NCBI GenBank assembly: GCA_022703645.1
Contig: JAKLDG010000001.1
Location: 338,814-402,813 of the forward strand
Source of the DNA: Patescibacteria group bacterium
GTDB taxonomy: Bacteria > Patescibacteriota > JACPGU01
Length of the DNA: 64,000 bases
Direction of reading: 5' to 3'
Made by a program: the position numbers and the translations under genes. This document shows, piece by piece, positions 6,579-61,220 of this stretch. Position 1 is the stretch's first letter. Every line of letters begins with the position of its first letter. The notes under the pieces are model-generated. The model saw nothing but the letters and a program-made list of their open reading frames with translations, was not told the DNA's origin and did no database searches.

Positions 6579-7145
6579 CTAAGCTCTTTTTGCAATATTC
6601 TTAGGGTTATTCATATCCCGACCCCACGTTGATGGATTTGATTCTATATAAGAATAAATTTCATCGTAAGATTTTTCATTGCGGATAATGTGTTCATAAT
6701 AGTTGCGTTGCCAGATACGATTTTCAAATGGTATTAATATATTTTGTTTAACCCCATCAATGCATTTTTTCGTTGTTAGTGATTTAAAACGTTGAATTAT
6801 TTGCGGCAATGACAGTTGTTTTTCTGTAGGGGCAAACCCCCGTGTTTGCCCGTTTTTAATTGGGCGGACACAGGGGTCCGCCCCTACGATACAGATAATC
6901 AAATGTATATGATTTGGCATAACAGAAAATATATCTACCTCGATATTTGAATAATACTTTGGGATTTCTTCTATCGTTTGGAAAATTATTATCCCAATAT
7001 CATTCAATCTCATCCCTCCATCAACAATTTCTCCGAACAAACACCCTCTATCTTGTGTACATATTGTAATAAAATAATCTCCGGGTTCGGAATAATCATA
7101 ACCTTTTATTCGTATTGACCTTCTGTTTTTGTTTTCTTTTTACAT
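6579..7145 (-). CDS. REP-associated tyrosine transposase (RAYT / IS200-like Y1 HUH), copy 1; codon 2 is TAA
   Basis: HUH motif MPNHIHLII and Tyr motif WQRNYYEHIIRNE. The N-terminus (RRSIRIKGYDYSEPGDYFITICT) is open upstream of the track start, but the reading is ATG TAA AAA where the paralog has ATG TCA AAA. Confidence 0.7.
6826..6887. repeat. GC-rich double-hairpin palindrome (GTAGGGGC...GCCCCTAC family) inside RAYT copy 1
   Basis: GTAGGGGCAAACCCCCGTGTTTGCCCGTTTTTAATTGGGCGGACACAGGGGTCCGCCCCTAC. Encodes the VGADPCVRPIKNGQTRGFAPT loop. Confidence 0.8.
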
Positions 7146-20610: not shown

Positions 20611-21183
20611 TATAAATTCATGGTATTTTTCCTTAAAATATTCTTAGGATTATTGCTGTCTCGTTCCCACATTTGCGGATTGGATTCTATGTAACTATAA
20701 ATTTCATCGTACGATTTTTCATTGCGAATGATGTGTTCGTAATAGCCGCGTTGAAAAATGGGGTTGCCTGTTTTGTCTAAGATAATATTTATCTTTTTCG
20801 TTGATTGATATTTAAAATACCCAATTATTTGTCCTAATGTTGGTTTTTTATCCCGTAGGGGCGGGGTCTCCCCGCCCTGAATTAAATTGTTTTTGTTACC
20901 TACAAATATCGTTTTTCTCTTCTAATATCCGCAATATAAAATGAATATGATTTGGCATTATCTGAAAAATATCTAATTTTGTATTTGGGAAATGATTCGG
21001 AATTTCGTACCAACATTTTTCTGCAACATTTCCAATCTTATTTAATTCCATTTTCCCATCCACAATTTCCCCAAACAAACATTCTCTGTCTTTTGTGCAG
21101 ATCGTAACAAAATAATCTCCAGGTTCGGAATAATCATATTCTTTAATCCGTATCGATTTTCTATTTCGTTCGATTTTTGACAT
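20611..21183 (-). pseudogene. RAYT / IS200-like Y1 transposase, copy 2, split by a 1-nt frameshift
   Basis: The N-terminal ORF (to MPNHIHFILRILEEKNDICR*) and the C-terminal part (…LGQIIGYFK…RGYYEHIIRNEKSYDEIYSYIESNP…) are in different frames. Removing one A from the GAGAAAAAC run joins them. Confidence 0.75.
20854..20876. repeat. GC-rich hairpin (GTAGGGGC family, single arm) inside RAYT copy 2
   Basis: GTAGGGGCGGGGTCTCCCCGCCC. Confidence 0.65.
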
Positions 21184-31626: not shown

Positions 31627-33006
31627 ATGTCTATGCCTAAAACGAATTTGAAATTTGTTTGTAATAATTGCGGGGCGGAGTTCCTTCGCTGGCAGGGGAA
31701 ATGCTCAGCATGTAATGAATGGGAAACCCTCGAAGAAATTAAAATTTCTTCTCGAGTTCAAAGTTCAAAGTTAAAAGTTCAAAGTGGCGGTGTTGCTGCG
31801 CAACTTATTTCTTTAGATAAAGTTGATAGTAAAAATTTTGAAAGAATCAAAACTAATATAAGTGAATTTGACCGCGTGCTTGGCGGGGGGATCGTACTCG
31901 GTTCGCTGGTTCTCTTAGGTGGAGATCCGGGGATAGGAAAGAGTACTTTGCTTCTCCAATCTCTCGTTGGAATTTCACAAAATAAAAGTCTGACGAAAAT
32001 TCTTTACGTCAGCGGCGAAGAATCAGCGCAACAAATAAAGCTTCGCGCGGAAAGACTGAAAATTAAAAATGAAAAGATATTTCTGCTTGCTGAAAGCGAT
32101 CTGGAATCAATCCTTGCAACTATTGAAATGGAAAAACCAAACCTGGTTATTATTGATTCTATTCAAACCGTATATTCCGATCAAATTGCTTCCGCGTCAG
32201 GCAGTATAGTACAGGTGAAAAACGCTACCGAGTCCCTGATGCGCGTTGCAAAAGCCACGAATGTGCCGATTTTTATTATCGGACATGTGACAAAAGATGG
32301 GGGGATAGCGGGTCCAAAAACGCTTGAGCATCTTGTTGATGTTGTTCTTTACCTCGAAGGAGACCGCTATCAATCTTTCCGAATCCTGCGCGGGATAAAA
32401 AATAGATTTGGCAAAACTTCCGAGGTTGGAATATTTGAAATGGAAGAAAATGGCATGACTGAAGTTGCAAATCCTTCAAAGGTTTTTCTCGAAGAACGTC
32501 TTGAAGGGGCGAGCGGTGTTGCAGTTAGTTCGATTATCGAGGGTAACCGTCCGTTTCTGGTTGAAATTCAAGCATTGTGTTCCAAGAGTTATTTTGGTTA
32601 TCCAAAAAGAACGTCTTCAGGAATCGATTTAAATAGATTGAATTTGTTAATTGCAATTATTGAAAAACGCGTGGGTGTGGATATGAGTCAATTTGATTGC
32701 TATCTCAATGTTGTTGGAGGCATCAGAATTCGTGAAAATTCAGTTGACTTGGCAGCTGCTTTATCGATAATTTCGGCGGCAAAAAACAAGCCAATAGACG
32801 ACCACACAGCCATTTTCGGAGAACTCGGGCTTTCGGGCGAAATTCGCTCTATTCCAAATCTGGAAAAAAGAATCGAGGAGGCAATCCGCATGGGGTTTGA
32901 CAAAATAGTCATTCCGAAGCAAAATAGTCAAAGCAAATTGAAGCCTGTGGGAAAAGTGAAATTTATTGAAGTAAGAACGCTAAAAGAGTCAATGGGAAGG
33001 GTATAG
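31627..33006 (+). CDS. radA: DNA repair protein RadA/Sms
   Basis: Zinc finger CNNCG...CSACNEW, Walker A GGDPGIGKST, KNRFG motif, Lon-like C-terminus. Confidence 0.95.
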   Translation: MSMPKTNLKFVCNNCGAEFLRWQGKCSACNEWETLEEIKISSRVQSSKLKVQSGGVAAQLISLDKVDSKNFERIKTNISEFDRVLGGGIVLGSLVLLGGDPGIGKSTLLLQSLVGISQNKSLTKILYVSGEESAQQIKLRAERLKIKNEKIFLLAESDLESILATIEMEKPNLVIIDSIQTVYSDQIASASGSIVQVKNATESLMRVAKATNVPIFIIGHVTKDGGIAGPKTLEHLVDVVLYLEGDRYQSFRILRGIKNRFGKTSEVGIFEMEENGMTEVANPSKVFLEERLEGASGVAVSSIIEGNRPFLVEIQALCSKSYFGYPKRTSSGIDLNRLNLLIAIIEKRVGVDMSQFDCYLNVVGGIRIRENSVDLAAALSIISAAKNKPIDDHTAIFGELGLSGEIRSIPNLEKRIEEAIRMGFDKIVIPKQNSQSKLKPVGKVKFIEVRTLKESMGRV

Positions 33007-46500: not shown

Positions 46501-49500
46501 ATGATTGTGGTAAAGAAAAAGAAAATACCTTTAAGACCGTTTTTAATCCTCTTAGTGTTAATAGCTGGGTTTACTTTGAGTTTGGGTTTAAAACCAAATG
46601 AAAAAATAAAAGCGGCTTATTCTAATCCTTGCAAGACAGCTGGCACGTATGCTGGTTATGTAGTTGACGCGAATCTTAATGTTATTATTCCGGCTTACAA
46701 TAATGCTGTGTTTGGTGACACTTTCTATGATAGTACCAGCAAAGAAATTCATTGTAAAAGCATAACGATAGAAACGGGAGCGACTTTAGATATATCGCCA
46801 AAAACTACCGGTGCAAGTAAAACAGGCGGCACAAATTATAGAAGATTGGTTCTTGATGGTGATTTGAATATCGCAAGCGGTGGAACGCTAAATCTATATG
46901 GCGGCAATATATATAATACCGGCGGACTCAATGGCACTGGGATAACAAATGATGGAAAAGGATATGGTATGAATGTTATGGTTGGTGGAAATGTTTTGGT
47001 TGAATCCGGCGGATGGATATCAGCTGATGGCAAAGGGTATGAACATAGTAAGGGGCCGGGAGCAGGTGTGGCTGAACCCGGTTCACAAGGCGCTGCATAT
47101 GGTGGGGCTGGTCCGGATGGAACCAATTGTTATGGGAAATATTACGGTTCGGTTTCTGACCCGATAGAACTCGGCAGCGGCAGTAGTTTGGGAGTAGGAG
47201 GCGGAGTAGTTGATATAACTGCCGCGGGAACAATATTAATTCGCGGCGTAGGCAAAATTACGGCAAACAGCATTGGAGAGGGATCGGGCGGTTCAGTAAG
47301 ACTCAGCGCCAATACTATTAGTAGTACAATTGACGGCGTAAATATACCTTCTATTACAGCAAATGGCGGTAGTGGGTCTTATTACAGTGGCGGCGGCAGA
47401 ATCGCGCTTTTTTATAATTCATCAAATTTTGGCGGTGATATCAAAGCTATTGCTAACGCCTATGGAGGAGCTGGCACTGTATTCAAGAAAAAAAATATCG
47501 AGGCTTATGGTGATTTAATTATTACAAATAATTATCAGGATCATACCGATAACCCTCCGGACTATACTCCATATGCATATACAAAAATTGGCAAAACAAA
47601 AATCGATTCTGGCACATATAAGAATATCACAGTTAATAAAAGAGCAAACGCTATTATTGAATCTAGTAATATAGTAAACATCAATGGTGGTACTTTTGAA
47701 GTAAATAATTCCAAACTTGAAAATAAAGGCACTTTAGCTTCACAGACTTCCGCAGAAAAATTTCTGGCGAAAAATACCGCTCGGATACTTAATAGCGGTA
47801 CAGGGTTATTTAGCCTGTCCGCGAACTCAAACGCTATATTTGACGGCATAGACACTTATTTTGAGAACCAAAATAATATTATCCAAAATTTCGCCAATTT
47901 AACTATCTCTAACGGGGCTGTCATGAGCCATGCCGTCAATGATGCTACCGGTGTGACAAATTGTCTTAGGAATTCAATTGATAATCCAGTTGGCGGCGCG
48001 ATCCCTCCTTGCGAATATAAGGATTGGGGTGATGGCTATGGGAAACATTGGAATCAAAAATATACCTTAAGGATAAATGCCACAAGTGTTAATATTGATA
48101 ACAAAAGTTCGATAGATGTTTCACAAAAGGGATTTCAAACATTACCTGGAACATCAGGTTTTGGGCCGGGAGGGTCAAGTACGGCTTACTCAATCGGTGG
48201 TTACGCGGGAGGTTCTTATGGTGGCAGAGGTGGTAACGATAATACTGGGGGAGTAAGCGCAGATATTTATGGCGACTCGGATGGAGACCTGAATAATCCA
48301 AATGATCTGGGAAGCAGCGGTGATACCGGCTATACTGCCGGAGGATTAGTAAGAATAACAGTTTTGGGCGATATTGTTAATAATGGCTCTATATTATCAA
48401 ATTCAGGTACGGTTTCAAATGGTTTTGCCGGTGGGTCAGGAGGAGGCATAAGATTGGATGCAGACCGGATTCTCGGAGCTGGAAAAATTTCTGCCAACGG
48501 CATGCCCGGAACGATAGATCTTGCGAAAGGCGGCGGAGGAGGCGGAAGGATCGCGATCACATACAAAACCACAAAAGATTTTTATGGTCCAATTACCGCT
48601 TATGGAGGGTCTACTGATGGGGGACCCGGTACGATACTTTTTGCAAACAATAGCTCGGGAGCCTTAATTGATAAAGAACTTGTTATTTCTAATTCAGTTT
48701 TAAACGACAATCCAACCAAAATAGGAGGCGGTACGTATAAAAATATTACCGTAAAGAATACCTCGCCAACTCTTACTGACCTGACTTTAGCCGCAATCGT
48801 TTCTGGACAATCCGTTGTCATGCAAGATGGTGGGAATTTTGAAGTTAACCAAACTAATTTAACTAATAGCGGAACTATTTCTTTATTAGCCGGAACGTCA
48901 AATTTAGTTATAAAGGGAAAATCAAATTTTATTAATATCGGACCTACCGCCTCTCCTGGCATTAACGCGAATAGTACTTCTAAAGTTATTTTGGACAATG
49001 CCAATTTTGAAAATAAGAATAATATTGAACAGAATTTTGGCAATCTTTATATCCAGAATGGAGCAATATTAACGCATACTCAAAATGATTACTTAACGGT
49101 AAATTGCGTGAATACTTCCTGTACCAACCAAGACCTGGGTGATGGCAATGGAATGCATTACAATCAGGCTTATACATTAAGAATACATGCAAACAATGCT
49201 TTAATTGATAAATTTAGCGCTATTAATGTTGATGGCAAGGGCTATGACATGGGTAGAGGACCGGGTAATAATGGGTCTGCTAATTCTGCCGGAAGTTATG
49301 GCGGAGCTGCGTCAAGCGGCGACAGTACCTATGGTTTAGCGGATAACCCTAATGATTTGGGCAGTGGAGGTTATTCCGGTAGTTATGGTGATAATACCGG
49401 CGGCGGTTTAGTAAGAGTTAGGGCAGACGGTAATATAACAGTTGATGGCTTTATTTCTTCGGATACAACATCTGCCGGATCTTTTGACGGCGCTTCAGGA

Positions 49501-52500
49501 GGCGGTATAAAATTAATAGCAAATAGTATTCTTGGCTCCGGTTCTATTTCCGCTAGTTCTAATTTGACAAGCGGGAATATTGGCGGAGGTGGCAGAATAT
49601 CTCTCATAGCTACGCAAAAAAATTACAGCGGCACCGTCTCTGTGAATAGAGGTGGAACTGGAGCGAATTACGGTACTATTTATGATTCTCTGGCTATCCC
49701 TACGACTTATGGTCCGAGCGCAACACCATTAACTTATAATACAAAATTAAGTAATAATACTCCATATATAAAAGCCGATAGTTCAGCAACAACGATAGGT
49801 GTTGATGAAGGCAATGCAGTTAGCACTGGATATACTCCAGATTCTGATACCTCACTTCTTTTGAAAATGGATAACTGGGGAGATGGTCTTATTTATGATT
49901 CTTCCGCAAAATCAATACCTGTTATTAAATATGGCACAACTTCCTTCTCTGATACTGTTTTGAAAACTGGAACGCATTCACTATTATTTAATGGTTCCAC
50001 AGGTCGTTTAATACCTGATGGTACTTTTACATCAAATTTCCAGTATGGCACCGGAGCTTTTACTATTGATACTTGGATTTATCCAAAATCTGTTACGACA
50101 CTTCAAACAATTTATTCTCAAAAAAATAGCGCGACACCAACAACTAATGCATCATCATTACAAATTACTACTACCGGTCAGCTAAAATATACTGAAAATG
50201 GAGTTTCTATTATTTCTCCTGTCAGTACTATAAAACTAGGCAGTGATGTCGGATGGCAACATGTTGCTTTAGTTAGAGATAATTTAGGGGTTGAAAGATT
50301 ATTTTATAATGGTTCCGTAGTAGGAACACAGTCGTCTACATACTCCAAATTCAGCGATGTCGGTATCGGATGTTTATACCAGTCTACTAATACATTATTT
50401 TATAATGGCTATATGGATGAGTTCCGTATCAGTAAAGGAGTGGCGCGCTGGACCTCTGATTTTATTCCATTATCTGATGATGGCAACTGGGAAAAATTAA
50501 ATTTGAGAGCAACAAGGACTAACCCTAGCTCCGATACTAAGCTTTTGCTTCATCTCGATGGAACAAATGGATCAACTACCTATACTGACAGTTCTCCTTC
50601 AAACCATACAATATTGCGTTACAACACACCAACAATTTCCACTAACACTAGTAAATTTGGCGGCGCGTCAGGCGCTTTCCCGAGAGTAACCTCTCCATAC
50701 TTTGATTATATTTATGCTAATGATAATGTTAATGATTGGACTTTTGGCGCGGGTGATTTTACGATAGATTTTTGGGCTAACTTTTCAGATAATGTCAGGC
50801 AAGGTGTTCTTGCCATCGGCTCCGGCGCTTATGCTCCAATTGCTTTTGAAGTAGTAAGCAACAATCTTAACGTCTACATGACTAGTAATGGTAGCAGTTG
50901 GGATATCGCTAGCGGTCAACCAGTTGGCCAAACATTTGGTCCGGTAACACCAGGCGTTTGGGTACATTATGCGCTAACAAGGAATGGAAATACTTTTTAT
51001 CTTTTTGTTAATGGTACTACTGTAAACTCTTTTATGTCATCATTAAGTTTATGGAATAATAGCGGCGCTTTATATATAGGGCAATATTTTGGGTCTGTTA
51101 CAGCCTTTAAGGGCTATCTGGATGAATTTAGAATTATAAAGGGAAGAGCGGCTTGGAGTAATAATTTTACTCCTTCTACAACTCCCTATGAAATTTATGA
51201 TGACCCGTCTTTCAATGGAACGGTAGATATTGGCATAATAGATAATCTTGCAGGTGAATATGTTTTTTCCGGCTGCAACGGAGCGAACTGTACTTTTTCA
51301 GATTCAAAAGTTACAGCGAGATTCATAAATGGTATTGCTAATTTAGCAGTAAAAGTAAAAGACAAAAGAGATGGGCAGATAAAGCATCACGGTTTTTCAG
51401 GGCTAAAAATTAACTCCGTTTCAAATGTATCTTATATAAATAATAATCAAATAACCGGAGCTATCGAAATTCAAGATAGAACCCCAGAAAGATCAATACC
51501 ATCAGGTCCTGCCCCCGCAGGAAGTATTACTAAAGGAACTGCTGGCGCTACTATTTTTCCAATGGGAGCCGGTTTTAGTATTATAAATAATTCCAAAGGA
51601 ACCAGTCAGAGCCAACAAGATTTGGGTGGTAATTTAGTGGTTCGAGGTCCATTAGCATCCGCGCCATATCGTCTTTACCTTGATAAAAACATAATGTATA
51701 AAAGAGGTGATTATTTGAATAGCGACGGAACTATTAGCAGCGTGGCAACAGATTATCAAGTGGTTTGTGTTAATACAGCGGACTATACCCAAACAAAAAT
51801 AAGATGTAATGATGATCTGAGCACCAGCGCTATTCCATCAGGATTGCGAAATTATGGTATATATACATTTAATAAAACTTATAATTTCTATACCCAGAAC
51901 GAAACCTCTAATTATTCAGCGCCTTCAATATCTCAAGTTCTTATACCAGCTAGCAACCCAACTGTGCCTGTTATTTCTCCTTTAACAATAACTCCGACTA
52001 ACGGAAAATTAAATCTCAGCTGGAATAATCCAATTGATAATATCGGGCAAACAAAAACTTTGATCGTTAGAGGTATCGATAGTATTCCTACTTTCGTTCC
52101 AAGTGATGGGACGGATTATAATACCTGGTCAAATACTACTGTAACCGGAGAAGAGATGATCTATGACAGCACTAATGTCGGGGCGGGAAGTGAAGTAAAA
52201 AACTTTGACGATGCCAATGTATTTTTTGGAACCAGATACTGCTATACAATCTATGCTCAATATATTGGTTATATTTATTCGGTAGGGACTTCTGCTTGCA
52301 GCACTCTAACATCAATTATTGATCCGCCAGTCAACCCAACTATCACGATTCAAGGAATGATGATAAATATCGGATGGACAGCGCCACCTTCCGGCAATCC
52401 TGATAATTACCTGATTGTTAGAAAAAAAGGCACAACAGAACCAAACTGGAATCCAACCGGGGAAACTGCTGACTATAATATTGGTGATACGGTTGGCGAT

Positions 52501-55500
52501 GGTGTTGTTGTCTGTAAAGGATTTTCATGCACTGATCAAAATGTAAATGTAAATACTTTGCCAACCCAGTATTATTATAAAATTTATGCTCAGTATGGAA
52601 CCGCGGCTCCCTTCAGTTATTCTGTCGGTTCAACGGCAGTAAGCGGAAATCCTAACCCGGAAAACCCCCAAAAGTTTGATAATACCAATGAAGCAACACC
52701 AAGTGTAACACTGGACAATCTATCAGGACCTTACACGCCTCTTAATACATTTAAGATTGCAAATTATCTTGTCTGGAAAGCAACAACTCCGGCTGATTGC
52801 TCAGGGGCTTGGACGCCAACCAATGGAGCTGACTATTCAGGAGTGCAAGGAACTGGAAATATCATTTACAAAAACCCAGCAGCGCCAATATCATATATTG
52901 ATACTGCAGTTACAAATGGCGTTGGTTATTGTTACAAAATCTTTGTCCAATATAATGGTGAAACAATCAATACTACTGATCTAATGTATTCTTCTGGATT
53001 AAGTCTTTGGACTCAACCGCCAAATCATAATCCAACAATTAGCGTAAATAGCATCACCCAAACGATCGGCACGGATAATGTGGTAATTAACTTTAATGTA
53101 AATGATATTGATCCATCTGATAATGGCAAGCTTTCTGTTGGCTTTGCTGTTACAAATCCGGTTTCAGGATGCAGTATTAGCACTTTAACCGGACCAATAA
53201 CTAACCTCGGTGTCGGAGCTCATAGCGTTACTTGGACCGCCACTACCACTAATGGAACCGCGGGGGATTGTCCAGGCGTAGAAATGTTAGCCGGTTCTGC
53301 TCAACTGACAGCCACTGTTTCCGATTTTATCGGAGCCACCGGTACCGCTAGTCCAACTTTCTCTCTTGACACCAAAGCTCCCATTGCAAGTTCCAGCCTT
53401 ATTTTGTCCTCCAAAAACAGCAACTCCATTACTGTCGCTACCGGAGCTACCGGGGCTACTGATGGAAACATAAAAACTACCGCTGCCTATAAAGTCTATT
53501 ACAAGCAAGGATCAACGGTAGACGAAGTAAGCGGTACGCAAATACTACCAAATATTAATAGTTATGTTGCGGGACAGATATTTACTGCTTCCTCGCTAAT
53601 AACTAACCAGCAATATTCATTTAATATCTGGGCTTATGATAACTATGGACATAAAACTGCTGCTACGGTATTAAATGTCAGCACAAAAGGAAAATCTGTT
53701 ACAGGATTTACAGCTATAGTTCAAGGTATGAGAGTCCATCTGAGTTGGGACGCAATGCTGCCGGCGCCAGATAAGCATCTGGTTATTCGTAAGAAAGGAA
53801 CATCCGCGTCTACTTGGACGCCAACAGATGGTATTGGAATATATGCTGCTGGCAACACGGTAGATGCAGATACGATAGTAGTTTACCATGGCACAGGCGT
53901 CACTCTGGATGATGATGCAGTTGATGGAGCAGCCTATACCTATACTATCTTTGCCAACTATTCTGGAAATCTATATTCAGAGGGGGTTTCAGCTCCATCG
54001 ATAACACCGAATGCTCTGAACGCGTCGTTATCTGCTCCTGCCTATATACCAAATGGATCAAATTATGATATCGCACTCAACTGGGTAGCCCCCACACCAA
54101 GTTACAGTTTACAAAAATATGTAGTAGTTAGAGAAGTTGGGTCTCCTACTTGTTTAATCGAATGGACGCCAACCAAGGATAATAACTATAATGCATTAGA
54201 TCCAACCGGCTTTACTAATGAAGAAATTATCTATTCCGGAACCGGAACCACTACTACTGATAATATGGGAGGAACGGGAGTTTCTTCTGGTACAAATGTT
54301 TGCTATAAGATCTTTACTCAATATCTGGGAGATGATTTAGCGGTTCCAACAAACTTAGTTTATTCCGCTGGAATTGCCGCTACCTATGTACCGCCAAATC
54401 TGCCTCCAGAGATAGAGATTGGTTCAGTCACAGCGCTACAAACTACCGGAACTGAAAATATTGTTATAGCTTACCGTGTTAGAGATTCCGACTCAACCAA
54501 TTTGAATATTACATTTAGCATGATTGATCCGGGAGGCTCCACTTGCCAAATGAATTTAACTGATAATTTGGCGGGGATTGATGGCACTTACTATACTCAT
54601 ACCGCTACTTGGAATGCAGGGCTGGCAGGAGAGTGCCCGGGATTTGAAGTAACAAATGCTGTTATCCAAGTAACTGCCAGCGATAGTCTTAATTCTGTTT
54701 CGCAAAACTCCGCTCCATTTCTGCTTGATACTCTATCCCCAAGGCTTCCAACTCCAACTGTTTCTAACTTTAATTTAACTAATTTTTCATCAACAGGAGA
54801 TAAGATATTCTTCAATCTAGGATCTAATTCAACAACTGATACTAATGCGCTTAACTACAAGATATACTATGCTTCTGGGGGAAGTGTTGATGAAACAGGA
54901 ATACTCATAACAGGAGCTCCTATAGCATTTACTCCTGGAGCTGCATATTCGGTAACCGGATTAACACCGGGACAAAACTATACATTTAATATTTGGGCTT
55001 ATGATAAATATGGGCATAAAACTTCTGCGACTTCCGTAACATATTCAACTATTGTGCCTGCTCCGGCAAGCTTCTCTGTAACTCCGCATGGAATGAGATT
55101 ATCACTTACTTGGACGGCTCCTGTCGGTGGAACCCCAGACTATTATCTGATAGTTAGAAAAGCTAATTCAGATCCAATAATAGCTCCCGCTAATGGTTCT
55201 ACATACAACCTGGGGGATATTTTGAGCGGGGGAATGGTAGTCTACAATTCAACCGGGACAAGCCTTGACGATGATAATATTGATGACGGTCCTTACTATT
55301 ACCGAATTTATGCGCATTATTCAAATGGCAATTTCTCACCAGCCTTGGCTGGCAATGCGATTGCAGTGGCGGAAGGACCAAATACATTCAGCGCAACCTC
55401 AAGCCCAGCGCCAGTAGTCACATACATAGACACTCCACCAACAAATAATTTCAGTTTCGAGAACTATCTTATTTGGAAGAAAGAACAACCTAGCTGTACT

Positions 55501-57534
55501 ACTGATGGCAATCTGGTAGACGGTACGGTATATAATTATCTTGATTCAGTAGATGGGGGAACGATTATTTATAAATCAAACATTGATCCTAATGGTATGT
55601 CTGATATCTCAACTACAATAACTGGCCATACTTACTGCTACAAGATGTTCGTAGAGTATAATGGAGAAACTACTAATACTATCTATTCTAATGAAATGTA
55701 CTTTCAAATCACTCCTCCAAATAATCCTCCGACTCTTTCCGCTCTTTCTGTTGTTCAAACAATAGGTAGTGACGATGTTGTAATCGGATTTACTATTAAT
55801 GATCCGGATGGAATTGACGCTGGCAATCTCTCAGTCGCTTTATCAATTGTTAACCCTCCAGAAGGATGCAGTATCGGTACAATATCTGGTTCTTTGACTG
55901 GTTTATCAAATGGTAGTTATTCGGTTACTTGGACTGATGCCGATACTACTTGCCCTGGGCTTGAATTATCTAATGCTGGTTTAGAGTTTATTGCTCACGA
56001 CCTGATAGATTATTCATCTGCGCAGATAAGCAGTTTTTTACTCGACACTAAAGCGCCTACACTAATAGAGGGGCTAACATATGACCCACCAACCGCAGAT
56101 ACTATTGTAGTACGCCTAAGCACCAATACATTCTTCTTAAATCCTTTGAGTGTTGATCAAAATCTAAAAGGAGGAGGAAATAGCTTTAAGATTTACTACA
56201 AACAAGACAGTACCGTTTCAGAATCCGATACACAATTAGCTGCCTTTGATAATTATATCTTAGGGCAAGACTATACGGCCACACCATTAGGATCTAATTC
56301 ACAATATTCATTTAATATCTGGGCTTATGATAACTATGGACATAAGACAGCATATACTGATCCAGTCAAGCCAACTACCAGCGGTCTCAACGGACCACCA
56401 GTAGTACAATATGTTGCTCAACCAGTCCAAGCTGCTGGTACTGGTAATATCAATTTCAGTTTTGAAGTAAAAGATCCAGACTCGGATGGTTTAACTATCA
56501 CATTCTCACTAATTAATAATCCAGTCGGTTGCAGTATCTCTGGCGTTACTGGGTTTACCAATCCTGTATCCTCCACCAGTACTTTTGCAACAATTATCTC
56601 CAGCTGGAATGCGAAATTAACTTGTGATGGAGCGGATCAGTCTGACCTCAAGATCAGAATTAGCGCGGATGATGGAAACGGACATACAGCAACTATTGAT
56701 TCAGATCCATTTACTATCGATACGAAAAATCCTGTCTCTCCAGGAAACCTATCATTCCCAGCAGGAACTACTTTTGCGAATCAGGTTAGTGTAAAGACAA
56801 ATACTATTTCCGGTAGCGATACTAATGCCGATGATTGGCATGTATATAGGGTTGATGGAAATACTTTCCCAACGGATCCATTCTCTCCTGCTCTAACTCC
56901 AATTAAATTATATGATCCTTATATACCAGATGACGTATTTATTGATTCGGGGTTAACGCCAGATTCTGATTATACTTATAATATCTGCCTGCATGATACT
57001 TTTATGAACTTTACCTGCGCAACATCGCAAACTATTCATACACCAGCTTCAATATTAAGCTTTAATATTCTTGGTATTGCCAGTGGAATATCGGTTGGAG
57101 TTGAAACAACTAATATCACTACTACTTCTACAACAATTCCTTTTGGCAGTACTACAGTAGGGGATACAAAGGTTGGAGCGCTTGATCTACAAGGCACAAC
57201 AAATCTGGTTAATGGATATACTATTGATATCAGACAAGACCAAGATTTAACATCAGGAGGCAACACTATTCCTGCCCTTACCTCTACTAACGCTAGTCCG
57301 CAAGTATGGCCACCAACTCCAATTAGTTCTTTCTTTGGATATTCATCAATCAATCTTTCCAGATTTTCAAATGGCGTTAATTGGGCAGGATTAACTTTGT
57401 CTGACCTACCGATAGTAACACAGATAAACGGGACTCATGATGATGATGTTTTATTCAAATTATCCACCAAGAGTCCTCAACCAGCAGGAACTTATCAAAA
57501 CACCATTACTTTCTCAATAATGGCGAATCCGTAG
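46501..57534 (+). CDS. Giant (3677 aa) secreted/surface protein: three Gly-rich beta-helix-like blocks, two LamG-like domains, FN3-like repeats, four Cys-pair/Asp-rich modules, distinct C-terminal domain
   Basis: Single uninterrupted ORF with an N-terminal TM/signal. LamG-type motifs GTGAFTIDTWIYPKS...YMDEFRISKGVARW and GAGDFTIDFWANFSD...YLDEFRIIKGRAAW. The repeated motif FNIWAYD(N/K)YGHKT occurs three times. Confidence 0.85.
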   Translation: MIVVKKKKIPLRPFLILLVLIAGFTLSLGLKPNEKIKAAYSNPCKTAGTYAGYVVDANLNVIIPAYNNAVFGDTFYDSTSKEIHCKSITIETGATLDISPKTTGASKTGGTNYRRLVLDGDLNIASGGTLNLYGGNIYNTGGLNGTGITNDGKGYGMNVMVGGNVLVESGGWISADGKGYEHSKGPGAGVAEPGSQGAAYGGAGPDGTNCYGKYYGSVSDPIELGSGSSLGVGGGVVDITAAGTILIRGVGKITANSIGEGSGGSVRLSANTISSTIDGVNIPSITANGGSGSYYSGGGRIALFYNSSNFGGDIKAIANAYGGAGTVFKKKNIEAYGDLIITNNYQDHTDNPPDYTPYAYTKIGKTKIDSGTYKNITVNKRANAIIESSNIVNINGGTFEVNNSKLENKGTLASQTSAEKFLAKNTARILNSGTGLFSLSANSNAIFDGIDTYFENQNNIIQNFANLTISNGAVMSHAVNDATGVTNCLRNSIDNPVGGAIPPCEYKDWGDGYGKHWNQKYTLRINATSVNIDNKSSIDVSQKGFQTLPGTSGFGPGGSSTAYSIGGYAGGSYGGRGGNDNTGGVSADIYGDSDGDLNNPNDLGSSGDTGYTAGGLVRITVLGDIVNNGSILSNSGTVSNGFAGGSGGGIRLDADRILGAGKISANGMPGTIDLAKGGGGGGRIAITYKTTKDFYGPITAYGGSTDGGPGTILFANNSSGALIDKELVISNSVLNDNPTKIGGGTYKNITVKNTSPTLTDLTLAAIVSGQSVVMQDGGNFEVNQTNLTNSGTISLLAGTSNLVIKGKSNFINIGPTASPGINANSTSKVILDNANFENKNNIEQNFGNLYIQNGAILTHTQNDYLTVNCVNTSCTNQDLGDGNGMHYNQAYTLRIHANNALIDKFSAINVDGKGYDMGRGPGNNGSANSAGSYGGAASSGDSTYGLADNPNDLGSGGYSGSYGDNTGGGLVRVRADGNITVDGFISSDTTSAGSFDGASGGGIKLIANSILGSGSISASSNLTSGNIGGGGRISLIATQKNYSGTVSVNRGGTGANYGTIYDSLAIPTTYGPSATPLTYNTKLSNNTPYIKADSSATTIGVDEGNAVSTGYTPDSDTSLLLKMDNWGDGLIYDSSAKSIPVIKYGTTSFSDTVLKTGTHSLLFNGSTGRLIPDGTFTSNFQYGTGAFTIDTWIYPKSVTTLQTIYSQKNSATPTTNASSLQITTTGQLKYTENGVSIISPVSTIKLGSDVGWQHVALVRDNLGVERLFYNGSVVGTQSSTYSKFSDVGIGCLYQSTNTLFYNGYMDEFRISKGVARWTSDFIPLSDDGNWEKLNLRATRTNPSSDTKLLLHLDGTNGSTTYTDSSPSNHTILRYNTPTISTNTSKFGGASGAFPRVTSPYFDYIYANDNVNDWTFGAGDFTIDFWANFSDNVRQGVLAIGSGAYAPIAFEVVSNNLNVYMTSNGSSWDIASGQPVGQTFGPVTPGVWVHYALTRNGNTFYLFVNGTTVNSFMSSLSLWNNSGALYIGQYFGSVTAFKGYLDEFRIIKGRAAWSNNFTPSTTPYEIYDDPSFNGTVDIGIIDNLAGEYVFSGCNGANCTFSDSKVTARFINGIANLAVKVKDKRDGQIKHHGFSGLKINSVSNVSYINNNQITGAIEIQDRTPERSIPSGPAPAGSITKGTAGATIFPMGAGFSIINNSKGTSQSQQDLGGNLVVRGPLASAPYRLYLDKNIMYKRGDYLNSDGTISSVATDYQVVCVNTADYTQTKIRCNDDLSTSAIPSGLRNYGIYTFNKTYNFYTQNETSNYSAPSISQVLIPASNPTVPVISPLTITPTNGKLNLSWNNPIDNIGQTKTLIVRGIDSIPTFVPSDGTDYNTWSNTTVTGEEMIYDSTNVGAGSEVKNFDDANVFFGTRYCYTIYAQYIGYIYSVGTSACSTLTSIIDPPVNPTITIQGMMINIGWTAPPSGNPDNYLIVRKKGTTEPNWNPTGETADYNIGDTVGDGVVVCKGFSCTDQNVNVNTLPTQYYYKIYAQYGTAAPFSYSVGSTAVSGNPNPENPQKFDNTNEATPSVTLDNLSGPYTPLNTFKIANYLVWKATTPADCSGAWTPTNGADYSGVQGTGNIIYKNPAAPISYIDTAVTNGVGYCYKIFVQYNGETINTTDLMYSSGLSLWTQPPNHNPTISVNSITQTIGTDNVVINFNVNDIDPSDNGKLSVGFAVTNPVSGCSISTLTGPITNLGVGAHSVTWTATTTNGTAGDCPGVEMLAGSAQLTATVSDFIGATGTASPTFSLDTKAPIASSSLILSSKNSNSITVATGATGATDGNIKTTAAYKVYYKQGSTVDEVSGTQILPNINSYVAGQIFTASSLITNQQYSFNIWAYDNYGHKTAATVLNVSTKGKSVTGFTAIVQGMRVHLSWDAMLPAPDKHLVIRKKGTSASTWTPTDGIGIYAAGNTVDADTIVVYHGTGVTLDDDAVDGAAYTYTIFANYSGNLYSEGVSAPSITPNALNASLSAPAYIPNGSNYDIALNWVAPTPSYSLQKYVVVREVGSPTCLIEWTPTKDNNYNALDPTGFTNEEIIYSGTGTTTTDNMGGTGVSSGTNVCYKIFTQYLGDDLAVPTNLVYSAGIAATYVPPNLPPEIEIGSVTALQTTGTENIVIAYRVRDSDSTNLNITFSMIDPGGSTCQMNLTDNLAGIDGTYYTHTATWNAGLAGECPGFEVTNAVIQVTASDSLNSVSQNSAPFLLDTLSPRLPTPTVSNFNLTNFSSTGDKIFFNLGSNSTTDTNALNYKIYYASGGSVDETGILITGAPIAFTPGAAYSVTGLTPGQNYTFNIWAYDKYGHKTSATSVTYSTIVPAPASFSVTPHGMRLSLTWTAPVGGTPDYYLIVRKANSDPIIAPANGSTYNLGDILSGGMVVYNSTGTSLDDDNIDDGPYYYRIYAHYSNGNFSPALAGNAIAVAEGPNTFSATSSPAPVVTYIDTPPTNNFSFENYLIWKKEQPSCTTDGNLVDGTVYNYLDSVDGGTIIYKSNIDPNGMSDISTTITGHTYCYKMFVEYNGETTNTIYSNEMYFQITPPNNPPTLSALSVVQTIGSDDVVIGFTINDPDGIDAGNLSVALSIVNPPEGCSIGTISGSLTGLSNGSYSVTWTDADTTCPGLELSNAGLEFIAHDLIDYSSAQISSFLLDTKAPTLIEGLTYDPPTADTIVVRLSTNTFFLNPLSVDQNLKGGGNSFKIYYKQDSTVSESDTQLAAFDNYILGQDYTATPLGSNSQYSFNIWAYDNYGHKTAYTDPVKPTTSGLNGPPVVQYVAQPVQAAGTGNINFSFEVKDPDSDGLTITFSLINNPVGCSISGVTGFTNPVSSTSTFATIISSWNAKLTCDGADQSDLKIRISADDGNGHTATIDSDPFTIDTKNPVSPGNLSFPAGTTFANQVSVKTNTISGSDTNADDWHVYRVDGNTFPTDPFSPALTPIKLYDPYIPDDVFIDSGLTPDSDYTYNICLHDTFMNFTCATSQTIHTPASILSFNILGIASGISVGVETTNITTTSTTIPFGSTTVGDTKVGALDLQGTTNLVNGYTIDIRQDQDLTSGGNTIPALTSTNASPQVWPPTPISSFFGYSSINLSRFSNGVNWAGLTLSDLPIVTQINGTHDDDVLFKLSTKSPQPAGTYQNTITFSIMANP

Positions 57535-58321: not shown

Positions 58322-59179
58322 ATGAGCAATCAAGACGATGTCCGCATAAATATTTTAGGAATTCCTATCGATCGGGTAGGTTATATTGATGTTTTAGATA
58401 AGATTGAATACTATATAAAAAAAGGCGGGTATCACTATATCGCAACGGTTAATCCAGAGTTTATTATGCACGCGGCGCAAGATAGCGAGTTTAAAAAAGC
58501 ACTACAAAATTCGAACTTAAATACAGCTGATGGCGTCGGAATCGTATGGGCAAGTAAATATCTTGCGAAAACTCAAAAATCAAATCTCAAATCTCAAAAT
58601 TTAAGCATCACTTCGCGATTTATTTATAAAATCAAAAAGATATTCTGGTTGAAAATTTCTTTGTTCTCAATTTTATTTAACCGTCGTTGGCTCTATTCTG
58701 AAATTCCGGAGCGTGTTACCGGAGCAGACCTGATCTGGAAAATAGCAAAAAAAGCGCAAGATGAAGGCTGGAAAATTTTCCTACTTGGAGCAGGGGAGGG
58801 AGTCGCGGGAAACGTTGCGGGAAAATTGAAATCAAAATTCCCGAAAATTAATATTGTCGGTACTTATTCAGGCCGCCCGGAAGAAGAGGGGATTGCTGAT
58901 AGAGTTGCCGGATATGAACCGGATATTTTGTTTGTTGCTTTTGGCTCTCCTCGACAGGAAAAATTCATTTATAACAATTTGGATAAGCTCAATGCAAAAG
59001 TTGTTATTGGAGTCGGTGGAACATTTGATTTTATTGCTGGGCTAGCAAGAAGAGCGCCAAGATTTATGAGGAGATTCGGAATTGAATGGTTATGGAGACT
59101 TGTCTGCCAACCATTTCGAATCGGCAGAATTATCAACGCTTTTCCAAAATTTGTCTGGAAAGTTTGGAGGGGTAAATAA
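58322..59179 (+). CDS. WecB/TagA/CpsF-family glycosyltransferase with ~40-aa insert
   Basis: VNPEFIM, NTADGVGIVWA, ERVTGADL, FLLGAGEGVA, LFVAFGSPRQE, RAPRFMRRFGIEWLWRL. Confidence 0.8.
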   Translation: MSNQDDVRINILGIPIDRVGYIDVLDKIEYYIKKGGYHYIATVNPEFIMHAAQDSEFKKALQNSNLNTADGVGIVWASKYLAKTQKSNLKSQNLSITSRFIYKIKKIFWLKISLFSILFNRRWLYSEIPERVTGADLIWKIAKKAQDEGWKIFLLGAGEGVAGNVAGKLKSKFPKINIVGTYSGRPEEEGIADRVAGYEPDILFVAFGSPRQEKFIYNNLDKLNAKVVIGVGGTFDFIAGLARRAPRFMRRFGIEWLWRLVCQPFRIGRIINAFPKFVWKVWRGK

Positions 59180-61091: not shown

Positions 61092-61112
61092 GATTCAAAG
61101 ATATAATTTCCT

Positions 61113-61140
61113 TAGCCGCTTTAAAGCGGCTTTTTATTTT
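61113..61140 (+). terminator. Rho-independent terminator
   Basis: AGCCGCTT-ta-AAGCGGCT plus T run. Confidence 0.7.
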
Positions 61141-61151
61141 TCAATGAAATA

Positions 61152-61180
61152 TTGACAAATATTTTGCGTATTTATATAAT
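61152..61180 (+). promoter_or_regulatory. Consensus sigma70 promoter of clpC
   Basis: TTGACA, 17-nt spacer, TATAAT. Confidence 0.7.
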
Positions 61181-61184
61181 AGAG

Positions 61185-61211
61185 TTAGCACTCAACAGGA
61201 CAGAGTGCTAA
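61185..61211 (+). promoter_or_regulatory. CIRCE operator (HrcA binding site)
   Basis: TTAGCACTC-aacaggaca-GAGTGCTAA is an exact match to the CIRCE consensus TTAGCACTC-N9-GAGTGCTAA. It begins 5 nt after the -10 hexamer. Confidence 0.85.
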
Positions 61212-61220
61212 AGCACTCTA

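Follow-up and report, generated by a model that had tools for sequence, protein, structure and literature searches.

The 64,000-bp stretch of DNA that was analysed (hereafter the window; 37.6% GC) contains a clpC gene whose 837-amino-acid product is, by its Pfam and structure matches, an Hsp100 ATPase of the ClpC type (Table 1). Upstream of clpC lie genes for a WecG-family transferase and NusA and two small membrane ORFs; clpC itself is monocistronic. The order WecG ... NusA ... ClpC, MBL-fold protein, HisRS and PPIase is common to the clpC loci of relatives, the nearest named relative is 'candidate division CPR3', and the host is a Patescibacteria/CPR3-like bacterium; a protein identical to the window's ClpC, on metagenomic contigs of up to 867 kb, bears the annotation 'Patescibacteria group bacterium'. 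Elsewhere in the window a giant ORF of 3677 amino acids with a Laminin_G_3 match follows two large secreted/repeat proteins, an arrangement typical of CPR surface proteins.

The domain architecture of the protein in Pfam terms is Clp_N, AAA, AAA_lid_9, a short middle domain with UVR, AAA_2 and D2-small. Its closest PDB matches are Bacillus subtilis ClpC/MecB, Staphylococcus aureus ClpC and Mycobacterium tuberculosis ClpC1, each of which aligns with it end to end in one stretch, and ClpB structures align with it only in pieces. A loop in the D2 domain that carries the tripeptide LGF is inserted opposite a gap in Thermus thermophilus ClpB, at the position of the ClpP-docking tripeptide. Identity as ClpB was considered and rejected, because the match to the NCBIfam ClpB equivalog is below cut-off and falls in two pieces, because of the loop insertion, and because ClpC structures give the better fit. 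The protein is a ClpC-type, protease-coupled unfoldase, for which docking to ClpP is predicted.

The putative clpC promoter matches the sigma-70 consensus at 12 of 12 hexamer positions and is the top scorer in a consensus scan of a 3.5-kb region. The CIRCE operator that follows it agrees with the consensus at 18 of 18 positions, in two 9-bp inverted repeat arms that are exactly 9 bp apart, and the 64 kb contain no second CIRCE-like site even when as many as three mismatches are allowed; the chance expectation is 0.02 sites per window, and any match at three mismatches turned up in 2 of 100 shuffled sequences. The first-pass annotation of this DNA had described a perfect CIRCE on a consensus clpC promoter, and its coordinates and description are correct, with 4 nt between the -10 box and the operator, which begins on the fifth base. 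A hairpin that resembles an intrinsic terminator (AGCCGCTTT/AAAGCGGCT followed by a T-run) precedes the promoter, and a T-rich stretch is found at the equivalent position in relatives too; since this hairpin appears to close the upstream unit of nusA and the two small membrane ORFs, clpC is likely a separate transcription unit. A third copy of AGCACTC abuts the right operator arm and can pair with it in RNA over 7-8 bp (AGAGTGCT/AGCACTCT, 61202-61219); this pairing would replace the CIRCE hairpin, and the minimum-free-energy fold of the window leader favours it. No relative has such a copy, so it is probably incidental. The -10/left-arm region recurs at 61323-61345 as a 23-nt direct repeat with 74% identity, which was judged to be a chance match between AT-rich sequences and was set aside.

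Table 1. Features of the clpC locus, of the repeat arrays and of other loci mentioned in the text (window positions unless a relative's locus is named).
Feature	Position	Strand	Remarks
Terminator-like hairpin and T-run	61114-61141 (stem 61114-61131)	+	Fold and terminator scan
-35 hexamer TTGACA	61152-61157	+	Read from sequence, promoter consensus scan
-10 hexamer TATAAT	61175-61180	+	17-nt spacer to -35; TAyAAT conserved in relatives
AGAG gap, -10 box to CIRCE	61181-61184	+	4 nt
CIRCE operator TTAGCACTC-AACAGGACA-GAGTGCTAA	61185-61211	+	27 bp, arms plus N9
Third AGCACTC copy	61212-61219	+	Abuts right CIRCE arm
Inverted heptamer arrays CCAATAC CCAATTG ... ATTGGAT ATTGGTC ATTGGAT	61221-61286	+	Leader hairpin of ~50 nt; arms 61221-61237 and 61262-61278
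Shine-Dalgarno AGGAGG	61348-61353	+	9 nt ahead of clpC ATG
clpC	61363-63876	+	837 aa, ClpC-type Hsp100 ATPase
CCAATAy/rTATTGG copy	10109-10191	-	leuS leader; starts 7 nt after TATAAT
CCAATAy/rTATTGG copy	15731-15837		Divergent ykuD/RNHCP region; TATAAT boxes flanking on both strands
CCAATAy/rTATTGG copy	L001 15764-15810		Upstream of PPIase gene, just past the window
AATTTTC/GAAAATT inverted heptamer pair	10495-10607		z = -3.98
Coding period-7 repeat	58568-58599		WecG-family gene
Coding period-7 repeat	31755-31785		radA-like gene
Coding period-7 repeat	9231-9374		leuS
leuS	7161-10070	-	969 aa, leucyl-tRNA synthetase
Giant ORF	46501-57534		3677 aa
Small ORF	6579-7040	-	Shares a motif with the next entry
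Small ORF	20896-21183	-	
CIRCE of relative L211	L211 9864-9890		4 mismatches
TTTGAGA arrays of relative L082	L082 5996-6027, 9935-9955, 19520-19610		
Heptamer arrays of relative L087	L087 6746-6765, 9970-9996		
AAAAGCT/AAAAACG units and complements	L212 1-240		Upstream of clpC promoter
CPR-type hrcA	L172 1872-2598		226 aa
CPR-type hrcA	L203 1626-2373		233 aa
CIRCE-type locus	L168 9266-9301 and downstream		Third short Patescibacteria-type HrcA
ClpB-like ATPase behind CIRCE	L177 3297-5249		Contig GC 0.28, Mollicutes-like

The clpC neighbourhoods of twelve relatives at growing distance from the window were compared, and we define the clade as those lineages in which ClpC shares at least 60% identity with that of the window; they are monophyletic, with identities of 60-83%. 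CIRCE is found directly upstream of clpC in seven of the eight clade lineages. The window has no mismatch to the consensus, L082 and L087 have one each, L083/L084 and L085/L086 have two, and L214 has three and places the operator 9 nt after the -10 box as against 4. The most divergent site, with four mismatches, is that of L211 (TTAGCGCTC-N9-GAGCGCCAG), where a symmetric A>G / T>C double substitution keeps the dyad, a possible sign of operator-repressor co-evolution. The eighth lineage, L213, has a plain clpC promoter with no CIRCE. Conservation of the site upstream of clpC in relatives had been set beforehand as a test of the first-pass annotation, and the operator came through it in these seven lineages.

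When the promoter regions of the window, L082, L083/L084, L085/L086 and L087 are aligned (the ClpC proteins of the last four share 60-68% identity with that of the window), no blocks are invariant apart from TTGACA, TA-AAT, TTAGCACTC and GAGTGC-A; variation is seen in the promoter spacer, in the N9 loop and in the flanks. Because only the hexamers and the arms are invariant, this is the classical phylogenetic footprint of a promoter with a protein operator, and as read from the alignment purifying selection acts on exactly these promoter hexamers and operator arms across the lineages. In 170 kb of clade DNA all of the sites with two or fewer mismatches precede clpC. Four outgroup Patescibacteria lineages (L088, L212, L089 and L090, ClpC 51-58% identical) have no CIRCE at clpC, nor was any found at up to three mismatches in 80 distantly related clpC/clpB loci (1.39 Mb, many phyla), which were collected through the universal DMSEFMEK motif as homologues no more than 49% identical to the window ClpC. 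Since it is kept in the clade and is absent from the outgroups, the site is an extension of a CIRCE regulon that is specific to the clade. In a neighbour-joining tree of ClpC, which carries no bootstrap values, L213 is the sister of the CIRCE-bearing L082 (83% identity) and is nested in the clade, so its lack of the operator is best read as a secondary loss, and CIRCE control of clpC must be dispensable because L213 has none. The simplest history that these sequences suggest is a single gain of CIRCE at the base of the CPR3-like clade and a single loss.

The same comparison bears on the idea that the palindrome arose by chance or is a relic, and does nothing today. L213 does live without it, but with 0.02 such sites expected per window, and with the same promoter keeping the site in seven lineages in which the non-coding DNA around it can no longer be aligned, we give this idea hardly any credence and regard it as effectively refuted by conservation.

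The arrangement of promoter and operator was also compared with that at other CIRCE promoters by scanning metagenome contigs for the pattern TAyAAT, 3-6 nt, TTAGCACTC-N9-GAGTGC, which gave at least 120 sites. Judged by contig names and GC content, these sites appear to come mostly from Firmicutes-like gut contigs or from contigs of higher GC. Among the 120 matches listed, the gene downstream is groES/groEL in 36, hrcA in 31, htpG in 22 and hsp20 in 8, it could not be classified in 15, and in 7 the contig ends before any gene. A Clp ATPase is a rare CIRCE target, being downstream in 1 of the 120 matches listed. That sole Clp target, on the low-GC contig L177, is a ClpB-like ATPase without an N-domain, and the perfect CIRCE there lies 3 nt after TATAAT and 14 nt before the gene. 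A gap of 4 nt between the -10 box and CIRCE is the commonest among the matches listed (78/120, at hrcA, groES/EL, htpG and hsp20 promoters), and the clade's clpC promoters therefore use the standard operator geometry. A literature search found no described case of clpC proper under CIRCE, an absence that is not proof. We note as a separate matter that htpG, which encodes Hsp90, is a frequent CIRCE target among the matches listed, nearly as common as hrcA and groES, apparently on contigs of the gut/Firmicutes type.

Neither hrcA, groES/EL, dnaK nor ctsR was found in the 64-kb window by inspection, by Pfam searches of candidate ORFs or with the HrcA HMM, and that HMM (PF01628), which found its positive controls, had no match when run on all ORFs of the window, of a 10-kb extension and of about 250 kb of clade loci. 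The clade loci examined contain neither groESL nor dnaK either. The repressor is nevertheless common in the phylum. Two low-GC loci, L172 and L203, carry CPR-type hrcA-grpE-hsp20-dnaK-...-dnaJ operons, both behind the arrangement TTGACA-17-TAyAAT-GAAT-CIRCE, and searches seeded with short HrcAs (that of L168, and a profile of those of L172 and L203) returned thousands of HrcA homologues. The best of these are Parcubacteria-type proteins of 160-240 amino acids from Patescibacteria (Kuenen-, Buchanan- and Andersenbacteria; P0121-P0360), and such short Patescibacteria HrcAs are often annotated as 'hypothetical' or 'DeoR'; HrcA is about 160-240 amino acids long in Patescibacteria versus about 340-357 on gut/Firmicutes contigs. 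Given the CPR hrcA operons and the abundance of homologues, HrcA/CIRCE is an ordinary part of Patescibacteria biology. Our search of the literature turned up nothing that links HrcA to Patescibacteria or CPR, which again is not proof of absence. The L168 locus encodes a third short HrcA of the Patescibacteria type.

The lack of an hrcA gene in the window, its extension and the roughly 250 kb of clade loci could be taken to mean that some other dimeric regulator of the clade binds a CIRCE-like dyad here and that clpC is not co-regulated with the chaperones, and the L211 variant does indicate that the recognition sequence can drift. Against this, the window's operator matches exactly, at 18/18 positions, a consensus shared across phyla, its geometry is identical to that of bona fide hrcA and groES promoters, the CPR ones included, HrcA is common in the phylum, and no gene for an alternative regulator is linked to the site. 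We consider such a substitute regulator very unlikely.

In the explanation that we favour, with a probability of roughly 80%, the 27 bp form a functional operator of the HrcA type (CIRCE), through which a strong sigma-70-type promoter that serves only clpC is controlled negatively, and the conservation of the site argues that in this clade ClpC is very probably under the control of HrcA, the repressor of the chaperones. We infer that HrcA is the binder in the host genome and that its binding represses clpC. From the position of the -10 box, transcription is predicted to start at about 61187, inside the left arm, and CIRCE would span about -2 to +25 of the predicted transcript; at this position a bound HrcA dimer would occupy DNA that RNA polymerase needs for open complex formation and promoter escape. 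In characterised HrcA systems the bound dimer blocks open-complex formation or promoter escape, and in model organisms HrcA is inactivated when GroEL is titrated away. By analogy, HrcA of the host would lose activity under heat or proteotoxic stress, and clpC would then be derepressed along with the chaperone genes.

The palindrome could instead act mainly as RNA, as a 7-bp stem with a 9-nt loop at the 5' end of the mRNA that sets its half-life or processing independently of any repressor. The predicted start inside the left arm would make the hairpin 5'-terminal, the CIRCE hairpin is present in predicted folds of the leaders of relatives, the double change in L211 keeps the pairing (which fits an RNA or a DNA hairpin equally), and a post-transcriptional role of CIRCE has reportedly been seen in B. 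subtilis. Six lineages, however, keep TTAGCACT/GAGTGC nearly letter for letter, there is a single covarying pair in the whole set of lineages, the arms equal the DNA consensus that HrcA recognises across bacteria, and in the window the minimum-free-energy fold pairs the right arm otherwise. Since the bases themselves are conserved, beyond their pairing, an RNA stem as the sole function is less likely, and we think it improbable that the element works chiefly in this way. An RNA-level role could coexist with repression by HrcA as an additional layer.

The first-pass annotation had also suggested that the HrcA regulon was expanded or rewired here, possibly to compensate for a missing CtsR. CtsR is a Firmicutes regulator, and for that reason it was probably never present in the clade. 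No match to its heptad box (RGTCAAA-NAN-RGTCAAA) was found in 61100-61362, and a scan of the whole window gave 13 matches, all with three mismatches, against 11.6 expected. There is also no ctsR, mcsA or mcsB upstream of clpC. With no box above chance and no ctsR-mcsA-mcsB operon, control of clpC by CtsR was rejected. In the sister lineage L213 and in the four CPR outgroups clpC has a plain promoter and no CIRCE, which speaks against the idea of compensation. What stands of the suggestion is the expansion itself, a CIRCE-type operator maintained on clpC in seven of eight clade lineages and in none of the outgroups; the loss of CtsR as its cause is unsupported.

Between the operator and the clpC start codon lies a second element, a hairpin of inverted heptamer arrays, which the first-pass annotation had thought could affect expression. 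The element exists (its right end falls at 61285/6), its arms are 88% complementary, its local fold has a free energy of -17.7 kcal/mol (z = -2.7), and the whole clpC leader folds with z = -4.15. It is not specific to clpC, being one copy of a dispersed repeat family in which units of about 7 nt, CCAATAy, are followed by complementary rTATTGG units. In the window the 11-mer ATTGGATATTG was counted 23 times (2.9 expected), clustered at three intergenic sites. The CCAATAy/rTATTGG copies fold into hairpins of 50-100 nt, and several of them start a few nucleotides after TATAAT. An inverted pair of a different heptamer, AATTTTC/GAAAATT, is also present in the window, and of the 55 tandem-repeat rows that TRF reports for it 20 have period 7, some of them within genes. 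Each relative that has such arrays has its own unit: TTTGAGA in L082, AATACTT/AATACAT in L083 and L087, and AAAAGCT/AAAAACG with their complements in the outgroup L212.

The clpC leaders of L082, L083 and the window each fold into a long hairpin (z between -3.3 and -4.2), which might suggest that the heptamer hairpin regulates clpC specifically in cis, for instance as an RNA thermometer or attenuator working together with CIRCE. We doubt this strongly, however, because the repeat also occurs in the leuS leader, in the ykuD/RNHCP region and upstream of the PPIase gene, it ends about 60 nt before the Shine-Dalgarno sequence without sequestering the ribosome-binding site, the leaders of L087 and L085 are unstructured (z about 0) and that of L214 is very short, and the repeat sequence differs in every lineage. 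An RNA thermometer in particular was rejected, as the Shine-Dalgarno sequence is untouched and the hairpin is missing in two folded CIRCE-bearing lineages. Rfam has no match in the window at gathering thresholds, the leader giving only sub-threshold noise, and on this ground a known riboswitch or thermometer family was rejected as well. The copies at several sites and the lineage-specific units make the leader element a dispersed, fast-evolving repeat with no conserved tie to CIRCE; it is best considered apart from the operator, and an effect on mRNA stability, the most that might be ascribed to it, is speculative.

Three further observations concern the genes in and around these repeats. The coding period-7 repeats in the WecG-family, radA-like and leuS genes read as peptide repeats with a period of about 21 nt, for example KSNLKSQNL in the WecG-family protein. 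The leucyl-tRNA synthetase encoded by leuS has a NUDIX match (PF00293, residues 407-506, E = 3.6e-12) inserted after the editing domain and before the catalytic core's second half, an unusual architecture. Two small ORFs of the window share the motif FGEIVDG.M.LN.IG, and one of them has a match to IS200-like Y1 transposases (PF01797) and resembles the REP-associated tyrosine transposases.

To our knowledge almost nothing is known of gene regulation in the uncultivated Candidate Phyla Radiation. On the present evidence clpC appears to be a conserved, clade-specific addition to the CIRCE regulon in an uncultivated phylum, the mechanism being that of the textbook and the target unusual. The operator makes a directly testable regulatory prediction, of which there are few for such organisms: inactivation of HrcA should induce clpC along with the chaperones. 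Besides, it offers a datable gain of a regulon member in one clade, with its loss in one lineage, parallel to events in the mycoplasmas, and so informs how stress control is consolidated in minimal genomes. No new mechanism is revealed, and the dispersed heptamer arrays are less expected than the operator. A bolder view, which we put forward tentatively and with the odds against it, is that HrcA here governs, as sole regulator, folding (groESL/dnaK) as well as ClpC-ClpP proteolysis, convergent with the Mollicutes, and at the same time that the heptamer arrays are an undescribed class of leader element. If it were true, the clade would exemplify, in nature, how regulons fuse as genomes are reduced, and the arrays just downstream of the promoters of clpC, leuS and others would be rapidly evolving elements that act generally in the stability or processing of mRNA.

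The known repeats that the arrays most resemble are the STRR of filamentous cyanobacteria, 7-bp tandem repeats that form hairpins near promoters, are dispersed and have no established function (PMC2670836). Both kinds are 7 bp in unit, intergenic, promoter-proximal, hairpin-forming and dispersed, a likeness of kind for which no homology is claimed, whereas the phylum and the units are different, and in the arrays described here the blocks are paired and inverted and the unit is peculiar to each lineage.

Among known control systems of clpC, the class III CtsR system of Firmicutes (ctsR-mcsA-mcsB-clpC) acts on the same gene family with the same logic of a stress-released repressor over the promoter; it differs in its heptad box and its ctsR-mcsA-mcsB operon, neither of which is present at clpC here. 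With the class I HrcA/CIRCE system, known from B. subtilis and many phyla at groESL and hrcA-grpE-dnaK-dnaJ, the window shares an identical operator consensus (TTAGCACTC-N9-GAGTGCTAA) and the same position immediately downstream of a vegetative promoter's -10 box. The targets of that system are chaperones, whereas here the target is clpC, which encodes the unfoldase partner of the ClpP protease; in comparative studies groESL alone is a constant part of the HrcA regulon (PMC545781). The closest parallel is in the Mollicutes, where the HrcA/CIRCE regulon includes the operon of dnaK as well as clpB and lon (PMC5138195), and because clpB and lon are already under CIRCE there, the novelty of the present case is modest. 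The Mollicutes likewise have reduced genomes and few regulators and have recruited CIRCE to the gene of an Hsp100/Clp ATPase. Their target, clpB, encodes a ClpP-independent disaggregase, often without an N-domain, in contrast to the full-length ClpC with its ClpP-docking loop encoded here, and since the two phyla are unrelated, the recruitment in Patescibacteria is likely to have been independent of that in the Mollicutes.
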